From: a virus
Taxonomy: Duplodnaviria > Heunggongvirae > Uroviricota > Caudoviricetes
Virus record (IMG/VR): IMGVR_UViG_3300032046_000009
Length of the DNA stretch: 64,000 nucleotides
Reading direction: 5' to 3' (one strand)
Shown: positions 613 to 63,121 of the stretch, in pieces
How positions within the stretch are numbered: the first letter of the stretch is position 1
Layout of the letters: each line of letters begins with the position of its first letter
Position numbers and translations under genes: made by a program
The notes under the pieces: generated by a model
What the model saw: the letters and a program-made list of their open reading frames with translations, nothing else
The model's database searches: none
What the model was told of the DNA's origin: nothing

Positions 613-660
613 TTTCACACGTCCTTAATACCTATATGTCAGCGTCCCTTATAAACCTTT
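613..660 (-). promoter_or_regulatory. class I promoter cassette (BRE/TATA + AAGGACGTG leader)
   Basis: minus strand aaaggtttataagggacgctgacatataggtattaaggacgtg; TATA 649-656. Confidence 0.6.
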
Positions 661-943
661 AGGTGTTCGTTAATCCATAGCGATATTTGGCGTTAATGGT
701 TTGAATCACCTTAATAGCTGAGGCTTCAGGTTGAATAACCTGAACTTTACGGTATGCTAAAGCTATAAAGGTCTGACATTCACAGCATAAAACTTCGCAT
801 ACTTCTAAGTTGCTGTCAGGAACCGCTTCCCATGTGGTTTTTAGTTGTGCCTTTTTGTGCTCGCATGGGTTCTTATCTATGTCACGGTATCCGTCCATAA
901 CTTTTAGATAAGCGAAATATTCTTGTTGTTCTAGTTCGTCCAC
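659..943 (-). CDS. hypothetical Cys-containing protein
   Basis: track 659..949; GTG 5 nt after leader; TATA 981-988. Confidence 0.55.
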   Translation of the reverse strand: MDELEQQEYFAYLKVMDGYRDIDKNPCEHKKAQLKTTWEAVPDSNLEVCEVLCCECQTFIALAYRKVQVIQPEASAIKVIQTINAKYRYGLTNT

Positions 944-1033
944 GTTCACACGTCCTTAACTATAGTAATAGCATCGCCTCTTATAAAGGTTTGCCTAAAA
1001 TCGGAAAGTTTATATACTAGAAAAAAGGGTTGT

Positions 1034-1264
1034 TTAGAGTTGCTGTTCTTCAATGGCTTTTTCTCTGAGTCTAGCGATGAGTCTAAGATGTAGCTGTTCG
1101 ATTTGTTCAGGGTAGAGGTAAACAAAAGACTCTTCAATATCGGATTCGCTGAAAGCTATTGCCCCGTTGTCGTATTCGATAAGTTCAACTATGCTTGTGT
1201 TTGCCCCACAGCATCGATGACGCTTATTTACTAACTTAGTTCGACATTTTACATTATCTTTCAC
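1034..1264 (-). CDS. hypothetical protein
   Basis: track 1034..1321 runs through its own TATA (1301-1310); trimmed to GTG after leader. Confidence 0.5.
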   Translation of the reverse strand: MKDNVKCRTKLVNKRHRCCGANTSIVELIEYDNGAIAFSESDIEESFVYLYPEQIEQLHLRLIARLREKAIEEQQL

Positions 1265-1317
1265 TTTTCCACGTCCTTGTAATATAGTATAGCACCGACC
1301 TATATAAACGTTGCTAC

Positions 1318-1497
1318 TCAAAATTGAGTTCTGATGTCGGCGAATCTCGGTTGTCTCAGCCTAAACGCTCTTGTGAATGTAAAACCCTGTCTCGTGAGTT
1401 CAGCCCTCATATTTTCAACATTATGACCGCACAGTAAAAGCGTAGCTGTCCCGTGTGCCTCTGTTCGTGTTCCCGTAACGTAAAATAGCTGTGCCAT
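1318..1497 (-). CDS. hypothetical 59-aa protein (not in track)
   Basis: ATG after GGTGA; TATA 1529-1536; stop TGA inside TTGAGTAGC promoter element. Confidence 0.45.
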   Translation of the reverse strand: MAQLFYVTGTRTEAHGTATLLLCGHNVENMRAELTRQGFTFTRAFRLRQPRFADIRTQF

Positions 1498-1557
1498 ATT
1501 TTCACCAATAGCATATAGGCATCGTAGCTTATAAACCTTTACCTAAAAACCGAAGGT

Positions 1558-1665
1558 TTATAAAGGACGACCACAACAAGCGCAAAACGGTTTTGTGTGA
1601 ATCAAAGTTTTACCGTAACCTATTGATTCTTCAACATATCGCCATATAACCTTATTTTTCTCCAT
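1558..1665 (-). CDS. hypothetical 35-aa protein (not in track)
   Basis: ATG 5 nt after AAGGACGGTG leader; hand translation. Confidence 0.3.
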   Translation of the reverse strand: MEKNKVIWRYVEESIGYGKTLIHTKPFCACCGRPL

Positions 1666-1892
1666 TTTGTCACCGTCCTTAATCAGTTGATTAATTGGTG
1701 AGGCTTACGGATTCGCACCGTCAAACCCGAACCTACGCGAAGTTTGCACCTTCGCACGATTTGAGGCTTCGGTTTATAAGTCCTCGCCTCGCCTCTTCGG
1801 TTGTGCACCGAGTTCGCTACCGAGTAGAGCAAGTCCTCAATAGTATAATAGTACCGTCCTTTATAAAGGTTTCTGTACTAAAGTGTACGCAA

Positions 1893-1945
1893 AGGTTTAT
1901 ATACCCGTGTGCTATAGTAGTATTAGGGACGGTGGCGACACGAAT
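1893..1945 (+). promoter_or_regulatory. plus-strand copy of the class I promoter cassette
   Basis: gcaaaggtttatatacccgtgtgctatagtagtattagggacggtgg read on plus strand. Confidence 0.5.
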
Positions 1946-2086
1946 CGGATATTACATGGACACGAATGCCATGAGTTCGGTTGCACCACGAGTTGAACTT
2001 TTGGTGTTCCGAAAAAATAATAGAAAAAAGGTGTCGGGAGTCCCGTTTAGTGTTTTGCACTTTTTTGGGTTATCCGTCTTTACGCT

Positions 2087-2164
2087 CTACCGTTCATCGA
2101 CTTACACTCCTATCGAACGTTTCGAACCGTTCTACCGTTCATCGGTAAGCACTCCTATCGAGCG
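2087..2164. repeat. 33-bp direct repeat, two copies 45 bp apart
   Basis: ctaccgttcatcgacttacactcctatcgaacg / ctaccgttcatcggtaagcactcctatcgagcg; ggctaattgtccct x2 follows. Confidence 0.7.
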
Positions 2165-2663
2165 TGTGTCAGAAGGCTAATTGTCCCTTTGTTAAGGGCT
2201 AATTGTCCCTCGTCCTTGTGAGGCTTCACGAGTTCGCCGTCTTGGGTCGCCCGCGCCTCAATAATATACTATGTCAGCGTGGTATATAAACCTTTCTCAA
2301 TTTGTGATTATAGAAAGTTGAACTATTGTCCCTTGCTTATAAAGGTTTCGACTTAATCAGTTGATTAAAAAATGCCAAATTCGCCGTTCCGCTTCGCCGT
2401 ACCGTTCCATCAATACCTACGATGTTTCCGAATTTCGTGATGAAAAGTGGGCAACTGTGATTGAAAAGCATGGGAAAAGACCATACCTACACGTCTGTTC
2501 ACGATTCATCACAATGGGAGCTATGGGAAAAAAGCATGGTATTGTGGTGAATAGTGAGCAACTGTGTATTGTGTGGCTAAACGAAAAATTCTCTAAGTTT
2601 TCAGTTAATAGAAAGTTGTACTAAAAAAAGAAGGGAAAGTTGCACCGTCTATATCACGGTGGT

Positions 2664-2897
2664 TTAACTCCACAGGCGCACCACAAGTCTGTTTACCGTT
2701 GCAAACTCTGGGTTGACCACGTTAGTTATCCCTGCAAGTTTAACTATTTCGCCGATTATGGTTATTCTTGCAGTTGTTCCGCAGTTGATACATTCGCTTG
2801 TACGCTGTGGTAGTCTCGCAGTTGCACTTTTTATAGCCTTCACGGATTTAACTATCGTGTGGTGTCTGCATTTGGGACAATTTCCGAAATATTCCAT
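2664..2897 (-). CDS. small Zn-ribbon protein
   Basis: CPKC...CINC; TAATG overlap with upstream gene. Confidence 0.6.
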   Translation of the reverse strand: MEYFGNCPKCRHHTIVKSVKAIKSATARLPQRTSECINCGTTARITIIGEIVKLAGITNVVNPEFATVNRLVVRLWS

Positions 2898-3490
2898 TAT
2901 TCATTCACCTCTTTATTAGTTGTATAGTAGTCTAGTGAGTTAGGGCTGACGGTTGCACTTTTGATTATCTTTATTATTCGTTTCGCTCTTATATAATCTA
3001 TGTGTCCGTGTTTGCCCTTATATACTACAGGAACCGTTAGACTTCGAATCCCGACCCGTTTTAAGAGCCTTCTACGCAATGCGTCACGTCTTACGACTAA
3101 AAGGTAATTCTTGTGCCAATTTGGGCTTATTTCTATGTCAATTTGGGTCTTAGGGTCAAAGAAGTCTAATTTGAAAATGTGCCAGCGGTTGCACCTATCC
3201 TTAACTTTTATGCGTACCTCATGGTTCAACTCTAGGTTAAAGTCGTCCACTAATCTCTTGAATTGTGCCTCTAAATGGGTAAATACGTTAGGATTACGCT
3301 TAGAATTCAATTTCCAGCAATTTCCAAAGCCCTTTCCTTTAGCCTTGCCTTTTTCACAGTCCTTATAGTGTTTAAAGAATTCTAAGAACTGCACTTGTGA
3401 TTCTAGGCTTAAATCGAAGAGTCCGATAACGTCCGTGTCCTCTAGTTGTGTTAAGTGTTCGCATATTACGCTAAGTTGTAAGTGTTCCAC
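2897..3490 (-). CDS. hypothetical protein, weak PD-(D/E)xK / DUF559-like C-terminus
   Basis: 197 aa; GTG 5 nt after leader; D..IEI..H..R..L..G pattern only suggestive. Confidence 0.6.
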   Translation of the reverse strand: MEHLQLSVICEHLTQLEDTDVIGLFDLSLESQVQFLEFFKHYKDCEKGKAKGKGFGNCWKLNSKRNPNVFTHLEAQFKRLVDDFNLELNHEVRIKVKDRCNRWHIFKLDFFDPKTQIDIEISPNWHKNYLLVVRRDALRRRLLKRVGIRSLTVPVVYKGKHGHIDYIRAKRIIKIIKSATVSPNSLDYYTTNKEVNE

Positions 3491-3564
3491 GTTCGCACGT
3501 CCTTCAATACTATAATGTCAGCGTCCTATATAAACCTTCGCATTAAAAAAAGAAGGGAATTGTT

Positions 3565-3858
3565 TCAAACGAAATACGGATGTCCGTTTATGCTTATCAG
3601 TTGACTCTTCTGTGAGCATATCCGCTTTAAATCTTCGCCGTATTTAAGTATTTGTTCAGGAGAAACCACGGTTGAACTTTCGATTATCCAAATTTGCACG
3701 TTGTCCAGATACAATTTTCCGTTGTCCAGCCATAGACCCTCACAGTTGTTAATGATAGTTAAACCGCCGAATGCACCGCACAGTTGAACTTTCACAGCAT
3801 CCAATTTCGTTTTATCTGGGTTCTCAGTTGTGACCACGTAGATTTTTATTTCTACCAT
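3565..3858 (-). CDS. hypothetical protein
   Basis: 97 aa; ATG 5 nt after AAGGACGTG; TATA 3895-3902. Confidence 0.6.
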   Translation of the reverse strand: MVEIKIYVVTTENPDKTKLDAVKVQLCGAFGGLTIINNCEGLWLDNGKLYLDNVQIWIIESSTVVSPEQILKYGEDLKRICSQKSQLISINGHPYFV

Positions 3859-3894
3859 CTTTCCACGTCCTTAATAGTGTAATAGCACCGTGAC

Positions 3895-4416
3895 TTATAA
3901 ACCTTCGCTTTTTTTGGTAAACTTAGCGAATTTTGAGATAACGCTCTGCTGTAGCTCTAGCTGTGCATCTATTGTACATGTCCCGATAAACTCACAATAG
4001 ACCCACTCGTTTATCGTTTCTTGTATCAATTCCAACACTAGAGGGTCTGGATTATTATCAAGCAATTCATTTATTGCTGTTTTCCAAGCATAAACCTCTT
4101 GTTTCAGCAAAAATTCTCTATCGTATGACAGGCAAAATTCGGCAATATCCATATTAGGGTAAAGCGTTTGATATACGATAATATGTCCTATTTCGTGATT
4201 CAGAATTAACGCTTTTACCTTATCAGGTATTGAACCATAACCATTAATATAATTAGTTGAATAGTTCTTAGTTCCAATAATGATTTTTCGCTCAGGGTAA
4301 AATGAAGCCTTCGAATGATTCCAGCTTAGGATATAACTGTACTCGATACGGAAACCTAGTTTTTGCGCTAAGTTTTCAAGTCGTGTCAATTCATCCTTAT
4401 CGTTCAAATGTTCCAC
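3895..4416 (-). CDS. HExxH metallopeptidase-like protein
   Basis: LNHEIGH motif; tandem TATA boxes 4441-4453 and 4479-4486. Confidence 0.6.
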   Translation of the reverse strand: MEHLNDKDELTRLENLAQKLGFRIEYSYILSWNHSKASFYPERKIIIGTKNYSTNYINGYGSIPDKVKALILNHEIGHIIVYQTLYPNMDIAEFCLSYDREFLLKQEVYAWKTAINELLDNNPDPLVLELIQETINEWVYCEFIGTCTIDAQLELQQSVISKFAKFTKKSEGL

Positions 4417-4504
4417 GTCCTTAAAGATGATATAACACCGTCCTTAATAAAGAGTTCTATGGTTTTTCTTGTAATAGGTATATAAACCTTTCGCTCTGTT
4501 CGAA

Positions 4505-4800
4505 CCTGTCCGTGCCAGCGATACCCAAAAGGACTGTATATCAAACCCGTTTGTCAAAAACAAGCCCTGAGCATGTCGTTCGGACGAATACGCTCAATTC
4601 CCTTTATATTTGCTCAACGATATTGAGCGAGCAAGCCCCGTTTAGTCGAATAAGGCTAAATCGTGGAGTTCGGGTCTATGTTAGGCATGGTCAATTCAAC
4701 ATCAGTCCTATGGTAACTATGGTTCGATGACGTTCGTTTAGCTAAATCAGCCTTAGAGCTAGTCATCGCGGCGAGTTCGAATCTATAAGATGCCTCTATT
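4505..4800. ncRNA. candidate noncoding RNA locus, paralog of 19105-19400
   Basis: ORF-poor; shared blocks cccaaaggactgt, cctgagc, aacgatattga, catcagtcctatgg. Confidence 0.4.
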
Positions 4801-5871
4801 AACTGATTCCGCCTCAAATCGGGGTCCGATGATGTGTAGCTAAAGTGTATCTGTGTTCTACAACTAAAAGCAAACGTTTATATAGGACGCTGAGAACGTA
4901 GTATTTGGCGGCGGCGGTTCGCGTTAAGCGTATATTACATAGTTACGCATCTTATGAATTCAGTTGCACTAAAAGTTCAACTTTGGGTTGCCTCTCTCCC
5001 GTGTCTTGCGTCAAGCTACTAGCAGATACGCACAGCCCTATATAAACCTTCCTATTAAAGTGTAGAACAGAGATACAATAGGAACCTTTATATACCTCGC
5101 TATCCTCTTCTCAGCGCGCCTCAAATCGTGCTTCGTTTGGCTAATCCGCCTCGATTCAGCCCTAATTGAACATGGTTGTTCTAGGCAAACATTTATAAGC
5201 AACCATGCCTTTTATATGGTATGTATCGAAAGACGTGATTAAACCCAGAGTTGTACTTTATGGTTCGAATTTTGCTAAGTTTGCACATATATAAGCAACC
5301 GATAGGTTTAAATAGCTACTATATAAGGCTATCGGCGATACGCTTAAATAGGGGGTATATAAACGTTTTGGTCTAGCACAACTTCTAGTGTAACAAAAAG
5401 TGCAACTTTTGGGGTAACGCCTCGGCTAACAGGAAATTGTCCGTAGAATGCAACTGAGAATGTCACATAAGCGCACATAGGCGTTTTTTTGATTCCAATT
5501 ATTTTCTGGTCAGAGCTTCCACGCCGTCCGTTTTACCTGTCGGTTTGCCCTGCTTAATCACCTGATTAAAAGTTCTCCACAGTTCCGCGAGCCTTTCGGA
5601 TAATAAAGTCACCGTTTGCCAAAACGTCTTTTTTTCAGGGCTATTTTGGCATTCAGGGGAGCTAGAGGGGGGGGACTTGTTTATAATGGGGTATTAATCA
5701 GTTGTTTAAAATAGAGCTATAGCACTATGTCAGTCAGCACGTTGTCGTATGCCAACTATTCACTCCATAGACCCTTTACGTATGACAACCCTTTTCTTTA
5801 CGTATGTAAAGGTCATCAGTATCTTTTATCGAGCATTTCTTTTATCCATGTACTCCACTTTTTAGCTATTC

Positions 5872-6040
5872 TGGGGGTCTAGTACCACTTTTAGGGGTCT
5901 TTTGAGGGGTATAGGGAGTCATCTAGGGGGTTAGTGATTAGAGGTCGTTAGGGGTTCGTGGTTAAGGGGGTCGGACGGGGGTTCTCTGGGGTTCGGGAAT
6001 TTACTTAACAATTTCTGTTAATGGTTAGGGGGGTCGGGGT
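5872..6040 (+). repeat. G-tract iteron array (about 10 runs of G4-G6)
   Basis: taggggtc, gaggggta, tagggggtt, ttaggggttc, taagggggtcgg, acgggggttc, ctggggttcgg, ttaggggggtcgggg. Confidence 0.75.
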
Positions 6041-6389
6041 AAAGGGTGCATGTGGCATGAGAGAGCCTGTTACGAGCTACGATTCGTTAATCAGTTGATT
6101 AAAAGTTCGGGTTTGCCTGTGTCGCCTTGCTACGGGCTTGGCAGAACTTGGGTCAGTCTGGGTTGACTAGGTGAAATCAAAAAGTGTTAAGGATTCTTAA
6201 CAAAAATTGTCTAAGTTTGCAGAGGGTAAAAGAGGGGGTTTCGAGAGAGGTTAGAAGGAATGAGTAGAACGGGCGAAGGGAAAGCGCGAGAAAGGACGGT
6301 GAAAAAATGGAACAATATCCCTTCGCCCTTGATAGAGTAGTATGTCAAACGGGTATATAAAGGTTGTGGTAGAAAGACCATGCTCGAAT

Positions 6390-6608
6390 CTAGTGTTCGA
6401 CTTTATAGATTCCATAGAGCAGTACCAATATTCCAACAGGGACACCCAAAAATAGAAGCGGTGAAAATAGCGCACCAAAAGTAGCAGAAAAAGCGAAAAT
6501 GAAAATTCCACCCAGAATTGCCCCTATACTTTGGGTTAGAGGGTCACGTATGACTTCGATGGTTCTTGTGTAGAGCCACTTAAAGAATCCTATTTTTTGC
6601 TTGACCAT
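6390..6608 (-). CDS. small membrane protein
   Basis: track 6390..6617; hydrophobic stretches; ATG 5 nt after AAGTGA; TATA 6643-6650. Confidence 0.55.
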   Translation of the reverse strand: MVKQKIGFFKWLYTRTIEVIRDPLTQSIGAILGGIFIFAFSATFGALFSPLLFLGVPVGILVLLYGIYKVEH

Positions 6609-6671
6609 CTTGTTCACTTGATAATAACAACAACACCGAGCTATATAAAGGTTTCCTAAGAACGTCCATGC

Positions 6672-6809
6672 TCAAAATTCAATGTGAACTTTGAGTATTC
6701 CAGAAAGTATTAGAGCTATTACAACTACGAAAAAGGCTATCGGGGCAAATGCCATGATTATGCCAGCGTTCTCTTTTACTTTCTTAATCACGGTTTTTAG
6801 TGTTATCAT
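6672..6809 (-). CDS. 45-aa membrane protein (not in track)
   Basis: hand translation; one TM; stop TGA in TTTTGAGCATGG element. Confidence 0.4.
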   Translation of the reverse strand: MITLKTVIKKVKENAGIIMAFAPIAFFVVVIALILSGILKVHIEF

Positions 6810-6982
6810 TTTAGACCACTTAGATTAGCGCGGAACACGGACGATTCTCCAATAAGCGTCCATCACTCGTCAGCTAAGGACGTAGTTTGGAAACCTTGTT
6901 TCCGTGCTCATACGAGTAATACAATAATCAAACAACTATATAAAGATTGTGGTAGAAACATCATACTCAAAAAAAGAGAGTT

Positions 6983-7524: not shown

Positions 7525-7914
7525 CTATTGATGTCCGTCTTGAATATTCTGGAAAACTTCAATGAATCCGTGCATGTGAACGGCACACGCGAATAACTCA
7601 TAGATTCCATAGTATGACGCAAAGTTGTCATAACCAACACCCGAATCTACGAAGATTCTGGGTCGCTTTTGGACATTGCCCTTCTCTGTGAGTCCCGCTA
7701 GAACAACGACACGTTTTTCTGGGTTCTTTAGAAGATATTTTTCTAATTGTTCTCTTGCCTCTTTGCCGAAGTTGTCCTCAATGTTCGCTAGGTTCAAGTA
7801 TGTCAGCTTAGAGTATCGTTCAGATGGTTGTGCTGGATATTGGTTTTCGAGCCATGACTCTGAGGGTTTAACGTTCTTCGATGTCAGCTTTTCCTTTAAC
7901 TCTTGTAACTTCAT
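7525..7914 (-). CDS. hypothetical protein
   Basis: 129 aa; AAGGTTGAAACT-ATG leader; TATA 7949-7956. Confidence 0.65.
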   Translation of the reverse strand: MKLQELKEKLTSKNVKPSESWLENQYPAQPSERYSKLTYLNLANIEDNFGKEAREQLEKYLLKNPEKRVVVLAGLTEKGNVQKRPRIFVDSGVGYDNFASYYGIYELFACAVHMHGFIEVFQNIQDGHQ

Positions 7915-7985
7915 AGTTTCAACCTTTGAAGAGTAGTGTTCGCCGTCCTATATAAAGGTTCGCTAAGAACGAACGTGCTCAAAAT
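7915..7985 (-). promoter_or_regulatory. class I promoter cassette with distal TTGAGCACG..TTCTTAGCG element
   Basis: plus strand cgccgtcctatataaaggttcgctaagaacgaacgtgctcaaaa. Confidence 0.6.
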
Positions 7986-8533: not shown

Positions 8534-8579
8534 ATTAAACTAAATGTTAAACGTGCTTATAAAGGTTTCGGTAAAAGTT

Positions 8580-8830: not shown

Positions 8831-8870
8831 GTCAAACGACTATATAAACTTTTCGGGAGAAAGACCATGT

Positions 8871-9254
8871 TTATTGTCTGGGTTTGTTTGCCCTTTCTCT
8901 AAAATCGTCTGTTTCTTGTTGTGTGAAAACTTTATCAATAGCTGGAAGTCTATCGCTCTTTACATAACCATGTAAAAGGTTTCTCTCTTCTACATATTCA
9001 TTATCGCTTTCAGCGTTCAAGTTGTGAGAAATAGCTGATAAACTTTCGTATGGAAGAATTCGGTTTAATACTTCATAAATTGCAACTTCATTGAATTCGT
9101 GAACGAACAACTCAGCACCAATATCATCAGCGATTATACTGTCAATGGAATAGATAACTTTGGTAATTTTAGTATCATATCTTGAAATAGTCCCAGAAGC
9201 CAAAGCTGTTCCATCGAGTTCAGCGTTATCGAAGTAAATTTTCTCCGTGTTCAT
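8871..9254 (-). CDS. hypothetical protein
   Basis: track 8871..9266; ATG 6 nt after GGTGA beside palindrome 9267-9282. Confidence 0.6.
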   Translation of the reverse strand: MNTEKIYFDNAELDGTALASGTISRYDTKITKVIYSIDSIIADDIGAELFVHEFNEVAIYEVLNRILPYESLSAISHNLNAESDNEYVEERNLLHGYVKSDRLPAIDKVFTQQETDDFRERANKPRQ

Positions 9255-9282: not shown

Positions 9283-9331
9283 TCAGTACAGCGCGCTATA
9301 TAAAGTTTCGCCTAGAACGTCCATGTTCGAG

Positions 9332-9704: not shown

Positions 9705-9745
9705 CTAAAGATAAAATAGTAGAAGTTGCTTATAAAGGTTATGGT

Positions 9746-12368: not shown

Positions 12369-12420
12369 CTAGAACAACACCGTGACTTATAAAGGTTGTT
12401 CCAGAAAGACCATTCTCGAA
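12369..12420 (-). promoter_or_regulatory. class I promoter for array A, palindrome 12353-12368 adjacent
   Basis: cgtgacttataaaggttgttccagaaagaccattctcgaa; about 160-nt ORF-free leader follows. Confidence 0.55.
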
Positions 12421-14300: not shown

Positions 14301-14352
14301 CTATAAATACAGCGTCCTATATAAACGTTTGCTAGGAATCTCCATTCTCATT

Positions 14353-14706: not shown

Positions 14707-14762
14707 TTGAAACACTAATTAATAGATGGTTAATTAAGTATTTAAGTCTTATGGTTGATTAA

Positions 14763-16667: not shown

Positions 16668-16805
16668 CTTTATTACCTTACGAGTATAGATGCCAGCGTC
16701 CTATTTAAATGTTTGCTTAGAAAGACCATGTTCATTTTAGTTAATCAACTGATTAAAATTTCTCAAAACCCCTCTCCCGCCCGAACCAAAGGTTGCACCA
16801 AAAGT

Positions 16806-18938: not shown

Positions 18939-19005
18939 TTTTCCACACCTTTATAGATGCCAGCGTAGCTTATAAAGGTTTCCCCAGAACGACCATGCTC
19001 GTTTT
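18939..19005 (-). promoter_or_regulatory. class I promoter cassette, palindrome 19008-19023 upstream
   Basis: aaaggtgtggaaaaatg leader; gcttataaaggtttccccagaacgaccatgctcg. Confidence 0.6.
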
Positions 19006-19544: not shown

Positions 19545-19620
19545 GCTGGAAATTGAGCATGGCGTTTTTAGGGAAAGATTTATAAGCTACCGTGTTGTAG
19601 TATTCACAAAGAGGCACAAA
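19545..19620 (+). promoter_or_regulatory. full class I promoter cassette on plus strand
   Basis: ttgagcatggcgtttttagggaaagatttataagctaccg read on plus strand. Confidence 0.55.
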
Positions 19621-23585: not shown

Positions 23586-23645
23586 TCAGTTATGTCTATG
23601 TGTTCGTCCTATATAAATGTATGCCTAGAACGAACGTACTCAGCA
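23586..23645 (-). promoter_or_regulatory. class I promoter for array E
   Basis: gttcgtcctatataaatgtatgcctagaacgaacgtactcagc. Confidence 0.6.
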
Positions 23646-24544: not shown

Positions 24545-24605
24545 TTTTATCAACAAGAGTATATTAGCATCGTCCTATATAAACCTTAGCCCAGAACTAC
24601 CATAC

Positions 24606-24893
24606 TCAAGTGAACTGAACTACTTCTTTTATAGCGTTCCTTATATCGCCTAGTGAAGTAATTTTAATATCCAAAATCATCTCATCTGCCATCTGTTGAA
24701 AGTGTTCTATCTCGCTTTCGTGTATCTCTTCAAATGAACATTTAGATATATGTTCTCCGTCATCGTAGTCATCTTCAAAAAACATAGAGCAAAGAGCACA
24801 TTCCTCTGAACCCCCACTTATACCCCCTCTAAATTTTACTGCAAGAGGGTCATTAGAATACGCAAGCCATCTTAAACTAACTTTACGTGTCAT
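24606..24893 (-). CDS. acidic small protein, last cassette of array G
   Basis: ends EVVQFT; its TTGA continues as TTGAGTATGG promoter element. Confidence 0.65.
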   Translation of the reverse strand: MTRKVSLRWLAYSNDPLAVKFRGGISGGSEECALCSMFFEDDYDDGEHISKCSFEEIHESEIEHFQQMADEMILDIKITSLGDIRNAIKEVVQFT

Positions 24894-27736: not shown

Positions 27737-27799
27737 CTAATCTACCCTGAATTATTAATAGCATCGACCCTTATAAACCTTTGCCCTAAAACCCCATAC

Positions 27800-28090
27800 T
27801 CAAGTGAAGGACACCTTTTCTGCCCCATTCTTTGCCTTTTCCTCTTCTTGGCGTTTGTCATCTAAATCTCCTAGATAACAGTCAATAGTATCCCAAGTTA
27901 CACCTATTGTTGCGTCATGTCTATGTTCCATTATGTCAATAATTTCCTCTGCTTCATTTTTGGTAATTTTCATACCCCTGTCTTTTGCCCGTCCCAGAAC
28001 GTCCTCAACATTCCAAATTATTAGACAGATATGTTCGTTTGGCTTGTTATAATTCTGAATGTGCTTTATTGCATCTTCTCTTGTTGTCAT
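27800..28090 (-). CDS. acidic small protein, monocistronic cassette
   Basis: own promoter (TATA 28115-28122) yet ends EKVSFT. Confidence 0.65.
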   Translation of the reverse strand: MTTREDAIKHIQNYNKPNEHICLIIWNVEDVLGRAKDRGMKITKNEAEEIIDIMEHRHDATIGVTWDTIDCYLGDLDDKRQEEEKAKNGAEKVSFT

Positions 28091-28434
28091 ATTAGGATAT
28101 ATTATCAGCGTCCCTTATAAACTTTTGCCTAGAACATCCATGCCAATATAACCGTCTGTCCAAGCCCTTGTGCCATCAAAAGCCACTTTTTTAAACAGTT
28201 GATTAACTCGACTTTGGAAAAAATTCCACGGTCTTTCCAATAAATTAATTAATCAACTGATTAAAATTTCTCAAATTTGCCGTTCCGCCCACAGTAGTAG
28301 TGTTTAAGAAGGGTTCATATATAAAACCAGAAGAGTTTGTTATGTTTTAAAGTTACAGAAAATTAAAGCAGTATGCCCTAAAATGGATAACTAGATTAAA
28401 AAAGAGAAATATAGAGAGCAATTAAAAAAATGCT

Positions 28435-29115: not shown

Positions 29116-29202
29116 TTTTCTCGACCTTACTAGAATACTATAACAATCCTCTATATAAATGTTTACTAAGAAAACCCATATACAAAAAAAGAAAGGAAGA
29201 TT

Positions 29203-30099: not shown

Positions 30100-30167
30100 T
30101 TATTCTCGACCTTACTGAAAGTAAGTTATCAGCGTCACTTATAAACCTTCGCTAAGAAAGTCCATGT

Positions 30168-30437
30168 TCAAGTAAATTGAACACGTTCGGGTTCGTTCCA
30201 GATTTCAACTCGTCTTTGCCAAGCTAAACGGCGAACCCCTAAATTAAGTGAAATAGAAGGATAATAAGATTCTCCGCTATGAAGTAGTGCCACGTTGTTG
30301 TGAACAATCGCACCATTATATAGTGCAAGAGAATGTATAAACGCATCTCTGTGAAGTTTCTCGTGTTCCTCTCTAGCAAGAAGAATAAATTTTGTTTTGC
30401 ATCCACATTGCAGATATTGTTTTACTTTTTCACTCAC
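30168..30437 (-). CDS. hypothetical small protein, terminal cassette
   Basis: GTG after AGGTG in degenerate palindrome 30440-30455; ends ERVQFT. Confidence 0.6.
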   Translation of the reverse strand: MSEKVKQYLQCGCKTKFILLAREEHEKLHRDAFIHSLALYNGAIVHNNVALLHSGESYYPSISLNLGVRRLAWQRRVEIWNEPERVQFT

Positions 30438-32624: not shown

Positions 32625-32689
32625 TTCAACCACTTTATACTTATGTTATAACAGCGTAACTAATAAAGGTTTCCCTAGAAAGACCATAC

Positions 32690-32806
32690 TCAATCACGTT
32701 TGAACGGTTCTGGGGGTTTGTGCTTCTCATACTTCAAGTGAGCGAATATAACCACACCGAGAAAGTAGAGAGCCATCAAGCCGTAGAATTGAAGTTCGGT
32801 CAACAT
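32690..32806 (-). CDS. 38-aa membrane protein (not in track)
   Basis: palindrome 32808-32823 supplies AAGTGATTAAT-ATG; stop in TTGAGTATGG. Confidence 0.45.
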   Translation of the reverse strand: MLTELQFYGLMALYFLGVVIFAHLKYEKHKPPEPFKRD

Positions 32807-35154: not shown

Positions 35155-35223
35155 TTCAATCACTTTACTTCTATACTATCTCAATGTGACTTATAAACTT
35201 TGCGTTAGAACGTCCATGCTCGA

Positions 35224-35825: not shown

Positions 35826-35889
35826 TTCAATCACTACACACTAAGATAGCAATGTCCCTTATAAACTTTCCCTAAGAATTGCCATGCTC

Positions 35890-36300
35890 AGTTTCGAAGT
35901 TAGTTCGAAAAAGTATATGAATTAAATTTAAGATTTAATGGGACTGTTATATAATTTTTCATGGTCTTTTCCCATAGGTTATAAACTATTCCATAAATCC
36001 TAAATATAATCCTTGATAGATTTCGGAGTTAGTTCGAAACATCAAAAAGTCCATACTTTTACCATAGACTATTCGAACAATTTTCGAAAAGAAAATATAA
36101 TTATTTAGGATTTTATGGATTAAAATAACTATCCGATTGCCCAGAGAAGCCATAAGAATGCCCCGTTTGACAAAAGGACATAGATATAAAAAATATTAAA
36201 ATTATATTTTAGAATTTTAATCAGGTGATTAACCGTGGTCGTATATTGCATGGACAATATAGGATAATTAATCAACTGATTAAAAATTCGAAAAATCGGG
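35890..36300. other. AT-rich ORF-free region with TTCGAA repeats and an inverted repeat
   Basis: tttcgaagttagttcgaaa / tttcggagttagttcgaaac; IR ccataaatcctaaatataat vs ataattatttaggattttatgg. Confidence 0.5.
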
Positions 36301-36582: not shown

Positions 36583-36639
36583 AGCTGAGAAGTAGTATGT
36601 GCAAACTACTATATAAAGGTTGTGGTAGAAGAACCATGC

Positions 36640-36786
36640 TCAAGTAAAGGTTACTTTCTCCACGTCCATTTTGTGCATACAGTCATAACAAAGCCACTTT
36701 CTTCCTTTAAGAACTACCACAATCTGTTTTCTTCCGCATCCGTCACACGTTAATCCTGTATAAGCCATAGTGATTTTGGCATTCAT
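36640..36786 (-). CDS. 48-aa Zn-ribbon protein (not in track), last cassette of array M
   Basis: CDGCG..CYDC; ends EKVTFT; TTGAGCATGG follows. Confidence 0.55.
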   Translation of the reverse strand: MNAKITMAYTGLTCDGCGRKQIVVVLKGRKWLCYDCMHKMDVEKVTFT

Positions 36787-40193: not shown

Positions 40194-40265
40194 TAATCGG
40201 TCACTACCTAGAGATATAGCTTTCCCCTATATAAAGGTTTAGTAAGAACTCCCATGCTCAAAACC
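40194..40265 (-). promoter_or_regulatory. class I promoter for array M
   Basis: ttcccctatataaaggtttagtaagaactcccatgctcaaaa. Confidence 0.6.
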
Positions 40266-40614: not shown

Positions 40615-41088
40615 TCAGATGGCTTTTTTCCACCCCCTCGGCTCCATGCCCCAAACTTTTAATCAGTTGATTAATAACTACCGAAAGGTTTATATGGTGC
40701 AACTCGTATTATATAAGGAAGAGTTGAACTTTCAATGACACAGAAAGTTACACTAACCGTAACCTCGAAAGTGACCCAGACGGAAACACGGAAAAGGGTA
40801 ACGCAGAAAAACCTTTAGGAAAAAACCATCGGTCACACTTTTTGAAACCACATACCCACACATAGGCGGCGCGCAGGCGAAAATTTGATTTTGGTCGGCG
40901 AACTTTGTGATTTCTGTTATGATTGTTATTTTGGTATTATTTTTATTTCCTATTTCCTGAGCATTTCGATTTAGATTTACTAAGGATTCGAGAAAAGAAA
41001 ATAACTGAAAACGTCTTTTTTTCAGGGAGTTTTGAACGTCTAGGGGAGCTAGGGGTAGGGGACTATCCCAGAGAAAGTTGGTATATGC

Positions 41089-55238: not shown

Positions 55239-55303
55239 ATTTCAATCACTATAAAGGTATTACGCACTCGTCCTATTTAAACTTTGCGTCAGAAACTCCA
55301 TGC

Positions 55304-55483
55304 TCAACTTCTAATCAATGAGAGGGTCAACCATTCATTGACGAGAACCATAATGTCATCTGGGTATTTTGGAAACTCTGGAATATCTAAAAATAGAAAC
55401 AACTCGATAAAGAAGTAAGGCTTTCGGTCTGTCCAATAAATTCTTTGAACCATCGAAGGACGTATTCTAAGTTCTTTTATCAA
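55304..55483 (-). CDS. 59-aa protein (not in track)
   Basis: TTG in JM variant TTCGATTGA; stop in TTGAGCATGG. Confidence 0.5.
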   Translation of the reverse strand: MIKELRIRPSMVQRIYWTDRKPYFFIELFLFLDIPEFPKYPDDIMVLVNEWLTLSLIRS

Positions 55484-56618: not shown

Positions 56619-56792
56619 TATACATCAATACTCCAACTACTATAATCTCTCCGTCCCTTATAAACCTTACGCTAGAATAACCATGCTCAATTTAAAGGTT
56701 ATGATGCCAGTTAATCAACTGATTAAAATATTGGTTTTGATAACCTTCTCCGCCGTTTTCCCATGCTTTCAACATGCTTTATAATATAGTTA

Positions 56793-58681: not shown

Positions 58682-58744
58682 TTTTAGGTCACTATCCTAT
58701 TATATCAGTCGTCCTATATAAATCTTGCGTAAAAAACACCATGC

Positions 58745-59680
58745 TCAATATTTGAAATCTTTCACATAGGTAGCCCACGGACGGTTTTTTGCCGTTTCAT
58801 TAGACATAGCACCCAAATGAGCGAACTTTATTCTGAAATCAAGATGAACTGAATATCCCAAACTACCAGCTAAAAGACAAAATCCAAAGTCTTCGCTTGC
58901 CCCCTCTTCTTGTTTAGCCAAATCATGGCGTATAGGAACAAAATTCAATCTTTTATCATTAAGAATTTTTCTGCTTAACGCCAAAGCACCAGCACTTGTG
59001 CAAGTCGCTTTGTATATCTTTCCCTCGTCATAATCTTGATATTTAAAGCCGAGAACATTAAGATTAAGTTGTCTGGCTTTTCTTATCTCTTTTGCAATTC
59101 CTCGTTTTATAATCGGAACAGTCCCTTTCGGCATGTCCTTAATAGGAGCATCAATAGACCATACGGTTGCTACCATAGTTTCTTGTGGAAAATCCCTAGT
59201 ATATGACCCGCCACAAATATCGAGATTATTGTCGTAATAAATATTATCCAAAAACCTTTGAATAAAATCTTTATCCTGTGGGATACAGTCATCATCGAGA
59301 AATATCGCTATGTTTGCACCAAATGTTCTTGCCCGTGTTAAAAGCAGTTGACGAACATTAGCTATTGGCTCATAAGGTTGTCCCTTAGCGGCATCTTCTT
59401 TGAACCAAATACGAATAACTTCGTGTGGCAACTGAAACTTTTCAATCAGTTCAAGAGTATTATCTACGCTATTGTTTTCGCAGAAGATGACTTTTTCAGG
59501 CTGTGGGTCTAAGCGATAAAGTGCTCGTTCGAAAACTTTCCAGCAACGTCTTGTAGTATTGTAAATAGGCACAAGAAGAACTACATCTTTAGCTACTTTC
59601 CCTAAAAATGGGGTATCATCTCTAACCCAAAGAAGAGTGAAAGAAACTTTGAAGCCCTCAATTTCTATTAGTGGCAACAT
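58745..59680 (-). CDS. family 2 glycosyltransferase
   Basis: LLVPIYN..NNSVDNT..FLDDDC. Confidence 0.7.
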   Translation of the reverse strand: MLPLIEIEGFKVSFTLLWVRDDTPFLGKVAKDVVLLVPIYNTTRRCWKVFERALYRLDPQPEKVIFCENNSVDNTLELIEKFQLPHEVIRIWFKEDAAKGQPYEPIANVRQLLLTRARTFGANIAIFLDDDCIPQDKDFIQRFLDNIYYDNNLDICGGSYTRDFPQETMVATVWSIDAPIKDMPKGTVPIIKRGIAKEIRKARQLNLNVLGFKYQDYDEGKIYKATCTSAGALALSRKILNDKRLNFVPIRHDLAKQEEGASEDFGFCLLAGSLGYSVHLDFRIKFAHLGAMSNETAKNRPWATYVKDFKY

Positions 59681-60524: not shown

Positions 60525-60794
60525 CTACTTCGTTTGTCTATTGGCGTATGTGAGAATCCCATGTAATTTGCCATTCCCGTTGTTGATTGTGCAGTAGAGA
60601 CATTCCTCAATAACGAATAGCTTTCCGTCAATATGTTGTGTGTACTTCATACGTTTATGTCGTCCACAAGTAAGACACGGTTCTTCAACATTAACTACAA
60701 CGATTCGCCCATCCATTTCCTTGATTTTTCGTTTCTCGTCTTCGCTTATGTTTTCTAAAGGAATCCGCATACAACTTCGGATTTGTTTTATCAT
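60525..60794 (-). CDS. small Zn-ribbon protein
   Basis: track start lies beside TATA 60831-60838; trimmed to MIKQIR. Confidence 0.6.
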   Translation of the reverse strand: MIKQIRSCMRIPLENISEDEKRKIKEMDGRIVVVNVEEPCLTCGRHKRMKYTQHIDGKLFVIEECLYCTINNGNGKLHGILTYANRQTK

Positions 60795-60865
60795 TTTTTT
60801 CTTACCTTGAATATATACACGCATTCGTCCTATATAAACCTTGCCCTAGAAAGACCATGCTCAAC
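60795..60865 (-). promoter_or_regulatory. class I promoter cassette
   Basis: cattcgtcctatataaaccttgccctagaaagaccatgctcaac. Confidence 0.6.
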
Positions 60866-61019
60866 TTTCGAGTCTCTGTTCTTTTCCAAGATGTCTCAGA
60901 ATAATAAATTGATGATGAAATCCCTCAACTGGTGGAATAAGATTTTCGCCCTTCATTTTCCATTCTATACTATATCTATCGGTTGCATGAATCCAAAGTC
61001 CATCATATTCGAAACTCAT
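60861..61019 (-). CDS. 52-aa protein (not in track)
   Basis: stop TGA in TTGAGCATGG. Confidence 0.45.
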   Translation of the reverse strand: MSFEYDGLWIHATDRYSIEWKMKGENLIPPVEGFHHQFIILRHLGKEQRLES

Positions 61020-61020
61020 A

Positions 61021-61422
61021 TTACCATCTTGGTCTATTTCTCTTTGTTACAGGTTCTAGGCAAGTGCCATTTACTCCATACAAAGAAATGAAGTGAGCTA
61101 TGAAAGTTCCTCTATATCCTTTAATGTTAAAGTCTGCATTCCAATCTTTGCGATACTTTATTAGGATTTTGATAATCTCAACTTCTGTGAATTCATGAAT
61201 ATATGTTCCTAAATCCTGAGAATATCTGGGAGCAATTTCTACTGTTTCTGTTGCAAAACAAACCCCAGTTTCGGAAAGATAAACTGGGCGAACATGGTCA
61301 TTGCATAAATGTCGAGAACGACAATGTTTACATATATCATGTTTCCATTCACTACATTCATGAACACATGTAAATTTGAAACCTAATAGGTCATGCTTTG
61401 TATATACCTTTCGTTCACTCAA
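61021..61422 (-). CDS. Cys/His-rich hypothetical protein
   Basis: 133 aa; TTG start. Confidence 0.65.
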   Translation of the reverse strand: MSERKVYTKHDLLGFKFTCVHECSEWKHDICKHCRSRHLCNDHVRPVYLSETGVCFATETVEIAPRYSQDLGTYIHEFTEVEIIKILIKYRKDWNADFNIKGYRGTFIAHFISLYGVNGTCLEPVTKRNRPRW

Positions 61423-61735
61423 TCAATATACCCTCGGACCTTAATTCTCTAATTACATCGTCACGAGAAATTGGTAGAAGTATTCTCTTATAATAGAGTG
61501 CCCAATCGAACATAACGTGCATCTTTGCTACTTCAATAAATCTTTCACGTTGTTTTATATCTGGGTAATCCTCTGGGTTGTATTTATCATAAATTGCAAT
61601 TGTATAGTGTGTATCTATCCAATGAGTACGTCCGTTAGTTCCATTATATGTTCCATCTATCCACTTATGAACTTCGGGATAAGATTCTCCAAAAATTTTC
61701 CAATCAATATCTTCATGAATTTTCGGGTTAGGCAT
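61415..61735 (-). CDS. hypothetical protein
   Basis: 106 aa; class II TATA 61771-61780. Confidence 0.65.
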   Translation of the reverse strand: MPNPKIHEDIDWKIFGESYPEVHKWIDGTYNGTNGRTHWIDTHYTIAIYDKYNPEDYPDIKQRERFIEVAKMHVMFDWALYYKRILLPISRDDVIRELRSEGILIE

Positions 61736-61813
61736 ATTTTCTCACTAAGGGATAACATAGAGTAAAGGAAGTATTTAAATCTTGCGGAAAAAGAGGGAGA
61801 GTGAAGGTAGTTC

Positions 61814-62677
61814 TTATTCTTGATGAGAACTGCCTTTTGGTGCGGGGAAGGACATTTTTCGTTCTTCCTCTTCCATTTTCGCCTTACGAAGTTCTGCACA
61901 TTTCTTGCTGTCGGTTGTCTTGTCGTAAACAAACTGGAAAAAGTTTTCTTCTAGGAAACGGTAGATACTATCAATCGGTATGAAAAATCCCATCCAAGTG
62001 ATTATGTCCACACCGAAACCAAGTTGCACACTTGCTACTCTAGCGGTATTTCCTATATATTCATAGGTATCTTCCAGAAAAACTGGACCGCCTGAGTTGC
62101 CAAAGATGATGTTGGCAGAAGTCATCCAGTATTCTTTTGCTTCTATTTGGTCGCCTTTGCTTGTCAAACTTCCAAAAGTGAAAAACGGATTATGTGCCAT
62201 CGAACAACCACAGCTTATCATTGATGTGCCGAGTTTTATATCATCTCCTTTTTCTCTTGGAAAGAGTTTTGCAACATGTTCTACTTTATCAGAGCATTTT
62301 ACCTTGAGTAAAGCGACATCAAGTGGTTTATCATAAGCAACTATTTCGGCATCCAAAGTTGTGCCACCTATGCATCGACTCAACTTTTCGTATTTGAAAA
62401 GTTCCACACGCACAAGTTCGTTAGCTTCAACCGTGATGTCTTTCTTGGAAATGCTAGACCACTTTTTGACGAACTTGATTGCTTCTTCAACAACGTGGTG
62501 GCAAGTTACAACATATGATTCATACTCTTTGTCTTCGTCTGGTTTGTCGATAGTCTCTGGTGTTACAGCCGAGTAGATAACTACGCCAGTTCCAGCGGCA
62601 TGTTCCGTCAAAACTCTAACAATAGGATAAAGGATATTCCGATGAATTTCTTTTAGTTTTTCAGCAGATATTCCCAT
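61814..62677 (-). CDS. trypsin-like (S1) serine protease
   Basis: His TCHHVV, Asp DVALLKV, Ser GNSGGPVF; ATG 5 nt after AGGTGA. Confidence 0.8.
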   Translation of the reverse strand: MGISAEKLKEIHRNILYPIVRVLTEHAAGTGVVIYSAVTPETIDKPDEDKEYESYVVTCHHVVEEAIKFVKKWSSISKKDITVEANELVRVELFKYEKLSRCIGGTTLDAEIVAYDKPLDVALLKVKCSDKVEHVAKLFPREKGDDIKLGTSMISCGCSMAHNPFFTFGSLTSKGDQIEAKEYWMTSANIIFGNSGGPVFLEDTYEYIGNTARVASVQLGFGVDIITWMGFFIPIDSIYRFLEENFFQFVYDKTTDSKKCAELRKAKMEEEERKMSFPAPKGSSHQE

Positions 62678-62734
62678 CATAGTCACCTATAAAGTAATAG
62701 ACAACCCAAGTATATAAGTGTTATGGTTTATGGT

Positions 62735-63079
62735 TTAACCAAAACTTTGTCCTATATGGTCAATTACACCAGACCAACCACCATCGCCATCTTCATCCTC
62801 TTCTTCTTCTTCCTCATCTGGACCCATTAATTCATTCCAAATATTGTTTTCGCTTTTCTCTCCATCTTCGGGCGGTGGGGGCAAGACATCCTCTTCCATT
62901 CTTTCTAAAATATGAAAAGCGCAAAGATAAATTTGAACCATCTCATACATTCCTCTACGTTCACGTTTCACAAGAACAGGATACAAACTTTCAGTTGATT
63001 TACCACAAACATCACACTTCGGACCAATAGCTTTCTCTTTTGCTTCTTCTTCCTCTGGGCAATAATCGTCTTCTGACAT
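62735..63079 (-). CDS. acidic Zn-ribbon protein
   Basis: track 62735..63091; CDVCG..C; poly-E tail. Confidence 0.6.
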   Translation of the reverse strand: MSEDDYCPEEEEAKEKAIGPKCDVCGKSTESLYPVLVKRERRGMYEMVQIYLCAFHILERMEEDVLPPPPEDGEKSENNIWNELMGPDEEEEEEDEDGDGGWSGVIDHIGQSFG

Positions 63080-63121
63080 AATCAACACCAAGAAAGATAA
63101 AGTAGAAGTAGTATTTAAAGG

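Follow-up and report, generated by a model that had tools for sequence, protein, structure and literature searches.

Short motifs that stand before many genes and mark a temporal class are familiar from the early motif AAAATTGA of mimivirus and from the promoter classes of T4 and T7, and repeated virus-specific promoter cassettes are already known from HF2, from SIRV, from the promoter-early stem-loops (PeSLs) of T4-type phages and from the motifs of giant viruses. The intergenic repeats (IRs) of HF2 and other Haloferacalesvirus, which form two classes of 58 bp and 29 bp, were shown to be promoters (PMC8707807). In the SIRV2 type the early promoters have a near-consensus core and are presumed to be turned off by Aca8, their flanks are taken as binding sites of a dedicated regulator (Aca8 or others), and the sequence has been used to predict anti-defence genes (PMC11065993); furthermore, the virus-specific promoter element of SIRV and Sta1 indicate that host factors can act on viral promoters (PMC1635249). 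Additionally, upstream elements are described at archaeal promoters, among them A(N)TTTC at -39 to -44 of the UV-inducible promoters of Sulfolobus (PMC5817253), the Ara-box/XylR system (PMC7264815) and EarA at fla (PMC5512572). In this article we analysed a stretch of 64,000 nucleotides of the IMG/VR virus record IMGVR_UViG_3300032046_000009 (Caudoviricetes), called the window hereafter, with coordinates counted from its first letter. It holds 203 called open reading frames (ORFs), almost all on the minus strand, and about 30 groups of genes are headed by a 43-bp archaeal-type promoter cassette, class A, whose upstream (distal) block is probably the binding site of a dedicated regulator.

The class A cassette was searched with the pattern TGAGYATGG-N3-TTCT-N5-AA-N2-TTTATA, in which mismatches were tolerated. 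With at most two mismatches 29 matches were obtained (27 on the minus and two on the plus strand) against 0.00 expected from 100 dinucleotide shuffles, and with at most three the number rises to 30 copies, 28 of which lie on the gene strand, in the direction of the genes. A 42-column weight matrix, controlled with dinucleotide-preserving shuffles of the Altschul-Erickson type, gave 38 matches of at least 12 bits where the shuffles gave 0.25; the matrix of the core alone, which consists of the TFB recognition element (BRE) and the TATA box, gave 59 at the same threshold and about 3 in the shuffles. The first-pass annotation had estimated about 40 copies, one per about 1.5 kb, which is fair in view of the 38 matrix matches (one per about 1.6 kb), and the 35 minus-strand, seven class II and eight plus-strand sites that it had proposed all have a BRE/TATA-like core on the strand assigned to them. 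Its description of the copies as near-identical was an overstatement, since the logo, tTGAgcATGGt..TTCT..g..AA..TTTATAtag.acg.tg, consists of fixed blocks interspersed with freely varying positions. The TATA box (TTTATA/TTTAAA, TTTAWATA) is almost invariant in the 30 copies of the window and in 68 copies from relatives, and a purine-rich BRE (cRnAAAnn) lies immediately 5' of it. The distal block (TTGAGCATGG..TTCT, in its fuller form tTGAGCATGGt-N2-TTCT) is confined within the window to 5166-60864.

The geometry of the cassette is rigid. The T of TGAG precedes the first T of TTTAWA by exactly 25 nt in 22 of the 26 occurrences in the window that have a TATA box within 80 nt and in 62 of 71 in the relatives (84/97 together), and distances of 24 or 26 nt were never seen in either set. 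The distal block adjoins the BRE upstream: it begins 25 nt before the TATA box, and 5 nt separate its 3' end from the AA of the BRE. It is asymmetric and non-palindromic; a palindromic reading (GARC-N6-GTTC) was considered and rejected as too weak. Start codons follow at 27-47 nt past the first T of the TATA box, often preceded by a GGTGA or AGTGA Shine-Dalgarno sequence, a distance that would fit leaderless or short-leader mRNAs. Archaeal transcription generally starts about 30 nt past the first T of TATA. Under this assumption the whole distal block would occupy about -56 to -40, with TGAGCATGG at -55 to -47 and TTCT at -43 to -40, the BRE would lie at -37 to -31 and GGACGnTG at -22 to -15. 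Class A cores score about 12-20 bits, similar to the cores of promoters that lack the distal block. In 12 of 28 copies the upstream called ORF uses the TGA of TTGAGCATGG as its stop codon, as had been noticed at the outset, so the promoters are packed right against the gene ends; the cacTTGAG junctions at 24609, 27803, 30171 and 36643 are likewise real and represent the ends of ORFs that finish in ...V-x-F-T*.

The cassette is conserved beyond the window. An exact-pattern scan of JGI metagenomes recovered 38 loci from sediment and peat samples (related loci carry L numbers here), about 24 of which are syntenic relatives with 35-100% protein identity and multiple cassettes, reaching 12 in 9.9 kb in L013, 14 in 15 kb in L024 and 10 in 10.8 kb in L027. 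The 68 distinct copies of the relatives reproduce the logo of the window independently, including positions outside the search pattern (t after ATGG, g after TTCT and tag..cg.tg after TATA). Since a blastn conservation profile across the cassettes gave only 6 spanning pairs, an ortholog-anchored comparison was used instead: in 20 of 29 cases the cassette is retained 5' of the orthologous gene (49-93% protein identity), the N positions differing and the motif being kept, and in the remaining 9 it was gained or lost and the gene lies within an operon. The alternation of conserved blocks with free positions, together with the agreement of the independent logo, argues for selection rather than recent copying. 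No class A copy was found in the large-gene arm of the element (L043, L051, L052), an exact-pattern scan of IMG/VR gave 0 matches, and the distal block is absent from the IMG/VR relatives found by protein-based scans (43-70% protein identity); the block is restricted to a sub-clade. Single class A-like cassettes occur also in chromosome-like contexts. One, at 4238-4268 of L004 (the Bathyarchaeia metagenome-assembled genome JBEKKX010000005.1, identical to L006), has thiolase/HMG-CoA synthase genes beside it and stands before genes without a known function; two others lie in methylase-rich islands, before a 104-aa ORF beside an N6/N4 methylase-Mrr fusion (L019, 11193) and before a HATPase_c_3 protein beside a C5 methylase (L022, 4512). 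They may be members of a host regulon or integrated fragments. Two further matches were discarded: an exact match in Chthonomonadales, one of two in the genome collection, looks like chance, and that of L012 is inside a gene on the opposite strand.

Class A is one of at least four promoter forms built on one core, which comprises the BRE cRnAAAnn, the TATA box TTTAWATA, usually tAGgaCGnTG, and then an AT-rich stretch. Strong BRE/TATA promoters other than class A number about 24, and the CCATAAC (class II) promoters about 8. The promoters at 600-5400 and beyond position 1 have the same core, with the distal block absent or different. In the second group, which covers 640-4493 and extends beyond window position 1, there is no distal block and the leader carries AAGGACGTGnnAAnATG, which looks like a Shine-Dalgarno sequence one base off AGGAGGTGA. 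The block TTAAGGACGTG (one mismatch at most) has 7 matches, five of them in promoters at 618-4424 without the distal block and two stray. In the third group an inverted repeat, AACTGTAG-N7-CTACAGTT (of the CTGT..TTCTACAG type), takes the place of the distal block; such promoters are found at 4870 (plus) and 5031 (minus) and also in L013, L024 and L047, and they often precede conserved non-coding DNA. The shorter class II form, which exists in about 8 copies where it had been placed by the first-pass annotation, is CCATAACCTTTAAATAC followed by a pyrimidine-rich stretch. The single long consensus proposed earlier is consequently a composite of at least two promoter classes: no copy carries all of it, and TTAAGGACGTG and the distal block never occur together.

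Comparison of the relatives revealed that indel and replacement junctions fall in the cassettes or at their edge; the synteny breaks were read by flank mapping, and the cases are few and come from fragmentary contigs. In L008 (20-166) the upstream flank and TTGAGCATGGACGTTCT of the cassette 6633-6675 are followed by ACCACAACCTTTATATACCCGTTTGAC of the cassette 6345-6387, and the intervening 289 bp, which include the 75-aa ORF 6390-6617, are missing. In the same locus the homologue of the cassette 7940-7982 is followed by a homologue of 24335-24544, which replaces 7525-7914. In L028 the four genes at 55304-55948 are missing and the junction falls at the cassette 55265-55307, and the homologue of ORF 352-618 has a class A promoter in L024 and a core-only promoter in the window.

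We consider it probable, at roughly 60%, that the transcription units of the window use an archaeal core with a class-specific upstream block, that the class A block binds one dedicated factor co-regulating about 30 units, and that the cassettes double as crossover points. A single dedicated regulator, as the first-pass annotation had suggested, is still the best reading of the distal block, since its discrete conserved blocks, phasing to the TATA box, adjacency to the BRE, class specificity and sub-clade restriction point to a protein-binding site used together with TBP and TFB. According to this model TBP and TFB would bind the class A core as at any archaeal promoter, and one sequence-specific factor would bind the asymmetric distal block on a fixed helix face beside TFB. 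The factor, encoded probably by the element or else by a narrow host lineage, would switch about 30 units on or off together as a single expression class, perhaps, if other viruses are a guide, that of early or accessory genes, and the large-gene arm would be served by other promoter forms. As a side effect or second role, the 43-bp repeats in the same orientation would serve as crossover points for deletion, insertion or replacement of modules.

Several observations weigh against a dedicated regulator. All positions relative to +1 are assumed ones. A Pfam screen of 150 window ORFs, with E values up to 1e-3, found no helix-turn-helix, winged helix-turn-helix (wHTH) or ribbon-helix-helix family, although small domains may escape such a screen and it covers the window part of the element. 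Among the small Zn-ribbon proteins, which the first-pass annotation had named for binding tests with the distal element, the sole TFIIB zinc-ribbon match, a 63-aa ORF at 32067-32258, scored 28.4 against a Pfam cut-off of 29 and is a generic zinc knuckle, so this lead was dropped. The BRE/TATA of class A is near consensus, whereas known archaeal activators usually aid weak promoters; an activator is therefore not obviously needed, and repression by the predicted factor is equally possible. Most archaeal regulator sites are palindromic, and the distal block is not. Since single copies of the cassette occur in host-like contexts, the host could encode the factor. Finally, the preference of L027 for TGAGCATGTT (6 of 10 copies, compared with 2 of 30 in the window) is biased by the way of finding loci, each of which had to contain at least one exact ATGG match.

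Other explanations have to be weighed against the dedicated regulator. If the distal and GGACGnTG blocks were extended basal contacts of a TFB or TBP paralogue of the host or the element, or of TFE or RNA polymerase, the cassette would simply be an optimal promoter; this is unlikely for the cassette as a whole, in spite of the rigid spacing to the TATA box and of the position of GGACGnTG, present in all strong classes, where TFB is generally known to touch the DNA 3' of TATA. The SIRV promoters likewise have a virus-specific element beside BRE/TATA (PMC1635249), and TTTC(T) sits at the place of A(N)TTTC, -39 to -44, in the TFB3-linked UV-inducible promoters of Sulfolobus (PMC5817253). Nevertheless, equally strong cores carry no or a different upstream block, which is thus unneeded for recognition of the core, and the 64 kb and the flanks examined revealed no gene for TFB or TBP. 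Moreover TGAGCATGG, at about -55 to -47, would be outside the usual TBP/TFB footprint, so basal contacts are possible for GGACGnTG and less so for TGAGCATGG. A terminator-promoter unit like the T4-type PeSLs, in which the distal block, as a 3'-end signal or a roadblock, would terminate the transcript coming from upstream and transcription would begin anew at the core, is very unlikely. The block does abut gene ends and supplies upstream stop codons, T runs or the palindrome TTAATCA-NN-TGATTAA precede some copies, and PeSLs unite both functions (PMC4122927). However, five or more T within 30 nt upstream were counted in only 5 of 30 copies, no conserved hairpin or inverted repeat exists inside the cassette, the block is fixed 25 nt from the TATA box when its offset from the stop codon ranges from 0 to more than 250 nt, and there is no upstream gene to be terminated at the plus-strand and non-coding copies; the 3'-end role that the first-pass annotation had considered for the block is accordingly not supported by the sequence.

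That the cassettes persist mainly as joints for module shuffling, their uniformity being due to gene conversion or copying, is a tentative possibility, which would be compatible with a promoter role. It draws on the clean L008 crossover within a cassette with its 289-bp module present or absent, on the one cassette with different next genes in L008 and the window, on the four-gene loss in L028, on the same gene under different promoter classes in L024 and the window, on the gain or loss of the cassette at 9 of 29 orthologous positions, and on the precedent of the PeSLs (PMC2839356). On the other hand, the free variation inside the cassettes argues against recent copying or conversion, conservation is limited to discrete blocks as protein binding predicts, and the junctions are a handful. 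Bacterial sigma-70 phage promoters, with TTGAGC as -35 and TATA.. as -10, are hardly conceivable: TTGAGC agrees with TTGACA at 4 of 6 positions and TATAAG/TATATA resembles TATAAT, but the fixed 25-nt geometry leaves a spacer of 20-22 bp compared with 17 +/- 1, and the strongest conservation is AAnnTTTATA, a BRE/TATA. The relatives moreover have MCM and Topo VI-A-like genes, and the LonB is of archaeal type with nearly all named homologues in Bathyarchaeia. With spacer and archaeal context already contradicting it, the sigma-70 reading was rejected.

The class A copies can be followed along the window from its first letter, on the minus strand unless stated otherwise. The plus-strand copy 5166..5208, a pattern match conserved in L013 and L024, has no ORF 3' of it and may precede a non-coding RNA (ncRNA). 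At 6345..6387 lies a copy of the ACCACAA...GTTTGAC subtype with no ORF 3', whose downstream half is found in the L008 chimera, and at 6633..6675, 5' of the 75-aa ORF 6390-6617, the copy whose upstream half is found there. The pattern match 6928..6970 (GTTTGA subtype) is followed by non-coding sequence. The copy 7940..7982, 5' of ORF 7525-7914, is retained in L013, and another gene is next to it in L008; 8111..8153 is followed by a conserved hairpin-like non-coding stretch (7990-8110) in which the stem CGCAC...GTGCG is conserved and the loop varies among the window, L008 and L013, and which is a candidate for a structured leader or a small RNA. At 8832..8874 there is a pattern match of the GTTTGAC subtype with a degenerate distal block. 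In the GTTTGAC subtype (6345-6387, 6928-6970, 8832-8874 and 36601-36643) TTCTACCACAAcCTTTATATA...GTTTGAC replaces GGACGnTG, and these cassettes lead into non-coding sequence conserved in L008, L013, L024 and L027, which contains small-RNA candidates. The copy 9288..9330, 5' of ORF 8871-9254, has TTAATCA-NN-TGATTAA palindromes on both sides, and 12377..12419 has one 3' of its TATA box. Retention was noted for 14309..14351, 5' of the 229-aa ORF 13594-14283 (L024, L025, L027), and for 16693..16735, 5' of the MoxR-type AAA_5 ATPase 15780-16667 (L027, L031, L038). The copy 18960..19002 is 5' of the 575-aa ORF 17211-18938, and 19553..19595 is a plus-strand pattern match.

Further along, 23601..23643 (3 mismatches) stands at the head of a long series of small genes that begins at 23576. 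The TGA of 24567..24609 is the stop of ORF 24606-24893 (...VQFT*) and that of 27761..27803 the stop of ORF 27800-28090, which has 28105..28147 5' of it. The copy 29143..29185 is 5' of ORF 28435-29115 and 30129..30171 is 5' of the SPFH/Band-7 gene 29203-30099; 32651..32693 and 35181..35223 are pattern matches. The copy 35849..35891, 5' of the membrane-protein ORF 35418-35825, is retained in L010, and 36601..36643 is a pattern match of the ACCACAA subtype. The copy 40219..40261 is 5' of ORF 39972-40193, and 45930..45972 heads a series of small genes that extends from 45906 to about 40500. At 50845..50887 the cassette precedes the Cys-phosphatase-like ORF 50419-50814 and is absent at the L011 and L028 orthologues; at 55265..55307, the L028 indel junction, it precedes ORF 54525-55238 and is retained in L011, L028 and L016; at 56648..56690 it precedes ORF 55926-56618 and is absent in four relatives. 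The TGA of 58706..58748 is the stop of the family 2 glycosyltransferase (GT2) gene 58745-59680, and 60822..60864, 5' of ORF 60525-60824, is retained in 6 of 7 relatives.

The core-only promoters (BRE/TATA + GGACGCTG) are concentrated at the beginning of the window. On the minus strand they lie at 640..662, 5' of ORF 352-618, at 972..994, at 1293..1315, at 1520..1542, at 1852..1874 and 2275..2297 (both with non-coding sequence 3'), at 2328..2350, which adjoins a TTAATCA palindrome, at 3519..3541, 5' of ORF 2897-3490, at 3886..3908, 5' of ORF 3565-3858, at 4471..4493, 5' of ORF 3895-4416, at 5348..5370 and at 8548..8570, 5' of ORF 8150-8524. The leader carries TTAAGGACGTG at 640..662, 972..994 and 3886..3908, and GAAGGACGTG at 3519..3541. 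Plus-strand members are 1002..1024, which stands back-to-back with 972..994 as its divergent partner, 1550..1572, the partner of 1520..1542, 1889..1911, which is followed by conserved non-coding ..ATCGGATATTACATGGACACG, 5080..5102 and 40682..40704, which adjoins a palindrome. The third class is represented by 4870..4892 on the plus strand, with the CTGT..TTCTACA inverted-repeat block upstream, and by 5031..5053 on the minus strand, which forms a divergent pair with 5080..5102. An array of three closely spaced TATA cores (31-47, 57-73, 83-99) occupies 50..98 on the minus strand. The class II promoters, with a CCATAAC BRE and a pyrimidine-rich stretch after TATA, are all on the minus strand: 9728..9744 (5' of ORF 9378-9704), 14738..14754 (5' of the HNH-like ORF 14353-14706), 47070..47086 (5' of ORF 46603-47040), 48826..48842, 62710..62726 (5' of the trypsin-like peptidase 61814-62686) and 63111..63127 (5' of ORF 62735-63079/63091). 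Class II-like promoters lie at 45984..46000 on the plus strand, 5' of the plus-strand ORF 46025-46453, and at 61771..61787 on the minus strand, 5' of ORF 61415-61735.

The region 1-6400, together with 9200-15700 of L047 beyond window position 1, has many promoters and few genes. Back-to-back divergent pairs are found at 972/1002, 1520/1550, 1852/1889 and 5031/5080, a G-rich stretch at 5860-6060, conserved non-coding sequence ..GCGTTAAGCGTATATTACATRG.. at 1949 and 4932, 3' of promoters, and about four TATA cores spaced by about 50-58 bp at 13278-13443 of L047. This promoter-dense region may serve for control or as a replication origin, or may hold a cluster of ncRNAs; Rfam at gathering thresholds and a tRNA scan gave no matches.

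Two other repeated elements accompany the cassettes. Among the 203 called ORFs 66, otherwise unrelated and 42-117 aa long, share the C-terminal [KR]-E-x-V-x-F-T*, and the corresponding junction was located at 63 minus-strand sites, e.g. at 9746, 20393-26469, 36640-39032 and 41549-45906. Its 20-nt DNA consensus, aaaGAaaagGTg.aaTTcACaTGA, can be read as Shine-Dalgarno sequence, spacer and an ATG or TTG start overlapping the TGA stop, an arrangement that would couple the translation of adjacent genes. The F codon is TTC in 35 and TTT in 31 cases, and the motif persists where no gene follows (stops at 9746, 14763 and 16806); this synonymous variation and persistence point to additional selection for a tag at the protein C-terminus. 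Close relatives have the motif frequently, and host-like loci and distant relatives lack it; it corresponds to the terminal junction of the first-pass annotation. The second element, the palindrome TTAATCA-NN-TGATTAA, is present in 25 copies in the window against 0.09 expected, e.g. at 1679, 2353, 9267, 9332, 14285, 14357, 16741, 19407-19923, 36217/36268, 40326/40659 and 56711, either just 5' of a class A distal block, between TATA and start codon or in non-coding DNA, and is found also in relatives, including the IMG/VR locus L053; it is probably a second regulator site, an operator. Paralogous small proteins with a basic N-terminal part and a ...GSxxHHID...H...H motif are encoded at 8150-8524 and 9378-9704, and a third small protein at 14353-14706 is of CxxC/HNH type (..HHEGND..CANCHRIISH); all three are possible HNH-like nucleases among the promoter cassettes. 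A bolder and rather doubtful proposal is that the small-gene arm of a Bathyarchaeia virus of about 150-200 kb is an archaeal gene-cassette system, in which dozens of tiny genes would be delimited by the class A promoter, served by one element-encoded factor of a new kind, and by the 20-nt E-x-V-x-F-T junction, both acting as recombination sites for rapid gene swaps under one programme.

The window is the small-gene arm of a large virus-like element. Proteins identical to those of the window are encoded on European Nucleotide Archive (ENA) metagenome contigs of 151,756, 137,451 and 86,048 bp, and the 137-kb contig begins near window position 9290 and extends past position 1; the element thus measures 150 kb or more, perhaps about 200 kb. 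About 15 of the 150 screened ORFs of the window have Pfam matches (KaiC/RadA-like, MoxR AAA, SPFH, RNA ligase, three GT2, trypsin-like peptidase, ParB_N and Cys-phosphatase). Most genes downstream of class A cassettes are without known function, and many of the units are long operons of up to about 25 genes. Beyond position 64000 there is an arm of large genes (L043 1-10000, L051, L052) with LonB and a glycan-synthesis block: PIG-L, SDR, hexapeptide transferase, Anp1-type glycosyltransferase, asparagine synthase, UDP-GlcNAc 2-epimerase and UDP-glucose dehydrogenase. In the relatives this arm contains MCM, a Topo VI-A-like Toprim protein and a Laminin_G/Kelch protein of 921-985 aa, which in syntenic relatives matches a PHROG family of virion structural proteins; more distant relatives are filed in IMG/VR as viral contigs. 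The available parts of the element show no capsid or terminase gene, comparison of the large window ORFs with PHROGs gave weak matches only (26612-27469 to the terminase large subunit, 6e-6), and megablast of 20 kb against the INPHARED phages gave no match.

Nearly all named homologues of LonB belong to Candidatus Bathyarchaeota/Bathyarchaeia (52-57% identity), which, with the MCM and Topo VI-A-like genes of the relatives and the one cassette in a Bathyarchaeia metagenome-assembled genome, points indirectly to an archaeal and probably non-euryarchaeal host; the host is probably a Bathyarchaeia archaeon (Thermoproteota). The archaeal character ascribed to the promoters by the first-pass annotation thus stands, on account of BRE/TATA, orientation, start distance and archaeal context, and a euryarchaeal host is improbable. 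On L050, a 183-kb Logan contig with 33% GC, a LonB 56-57% identical lies between portal/terminase and HK97-type capsid genes. L050 was rejected as a close relative, as it shares almost nothing but LonB and has no cassette; it is a hint only that LonB-bearing elements can be tailed viruses, and in large tailed viruses of archaea LonB may have the role of a head-maturation protease. In sediments and peat Bathyarchaeia belong to the most abundant uncultivated archaea, and to our knowledge nothing is known experimentally of transcription control in them or in their viruses; a survey of Bathyarchaeia viruses makes no mention of promoters or such elements (PMC10541130). The cassette is a sharply defined and highly repeated cis-element that could be synthesised for direct use, and it can help as a sequence tag to detect members of this family of very large archaeal elements. 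Furthermore it could predict a co-regulated set of well over 100 unknown genes, possibly early or anti-defence ones, and the cassette-bounded swaps suggest how such elements turn over accessory genes.

Compared with the described systems, the cassettes resemble the HF2 IRs in that AT-rich promoter motifs are flanked by conserved blocks whose sequence and position are kept among related viruses (PMC8707807). The IRs, however, number 7 + 2 copies in a virus of a haloarchaeal host, whereas the window has 30 class A copies and more than 30 others and its host is probably a member of Bathyarchaeia; the sequences are unrelated, and the block stands here at a fixed 25-nt offset. With the early sequence of SIRV2 and other crenarchaeal viruses they share a strong BRE/TATA with conserved flanks before small, fast-evolving genes of unknown function (PMC11065993), but there 3-12 genes, mostly in single-gene units, are concerned, and here about 30 units with operons of up to about 25 genes and no Aca-like wHTH found among the 150 window ORFs screened. 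Like the T4-type PeSLs they are short cassettes among small variable genes, with indel and replacement junctions within them (PMC2839356, PMC4122927); PeSLs combine a bacterial sigma-70 early promoter with a stem-loop terminator, whereas these have an archaeal promoter and no evident stem-loop. Known archaeal activator sites are similarly short elements adjoining the BRE and needed for the activity of a regulon, one of them non-palindromic, and A(N)TTTC shares TTTC with the tTTCT of the distal block at a similar place if the start is assumed about 30 nt past TATA. Such activator promoters nevertheless have a weak, activator-dependent BRE/TATA, in contrast to the near-consensus core of class A, and the 9-bp TGAGCATGG has no counterpart among them. 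Mimivirus, T4 and T7 belong to another domain and employ virus-encoded polymerases or sigma-like factors, none of which was seen here. What is new relative to all of these is the sequence of the distal block with its fixed geometry, the modular use of alternative upstream blocks on one core, and a very large, previously undescribed Bathyarchaeia-associated element with 30 copies in 64 kb, compared with 3-12 in the archaeal viruses studied so far.

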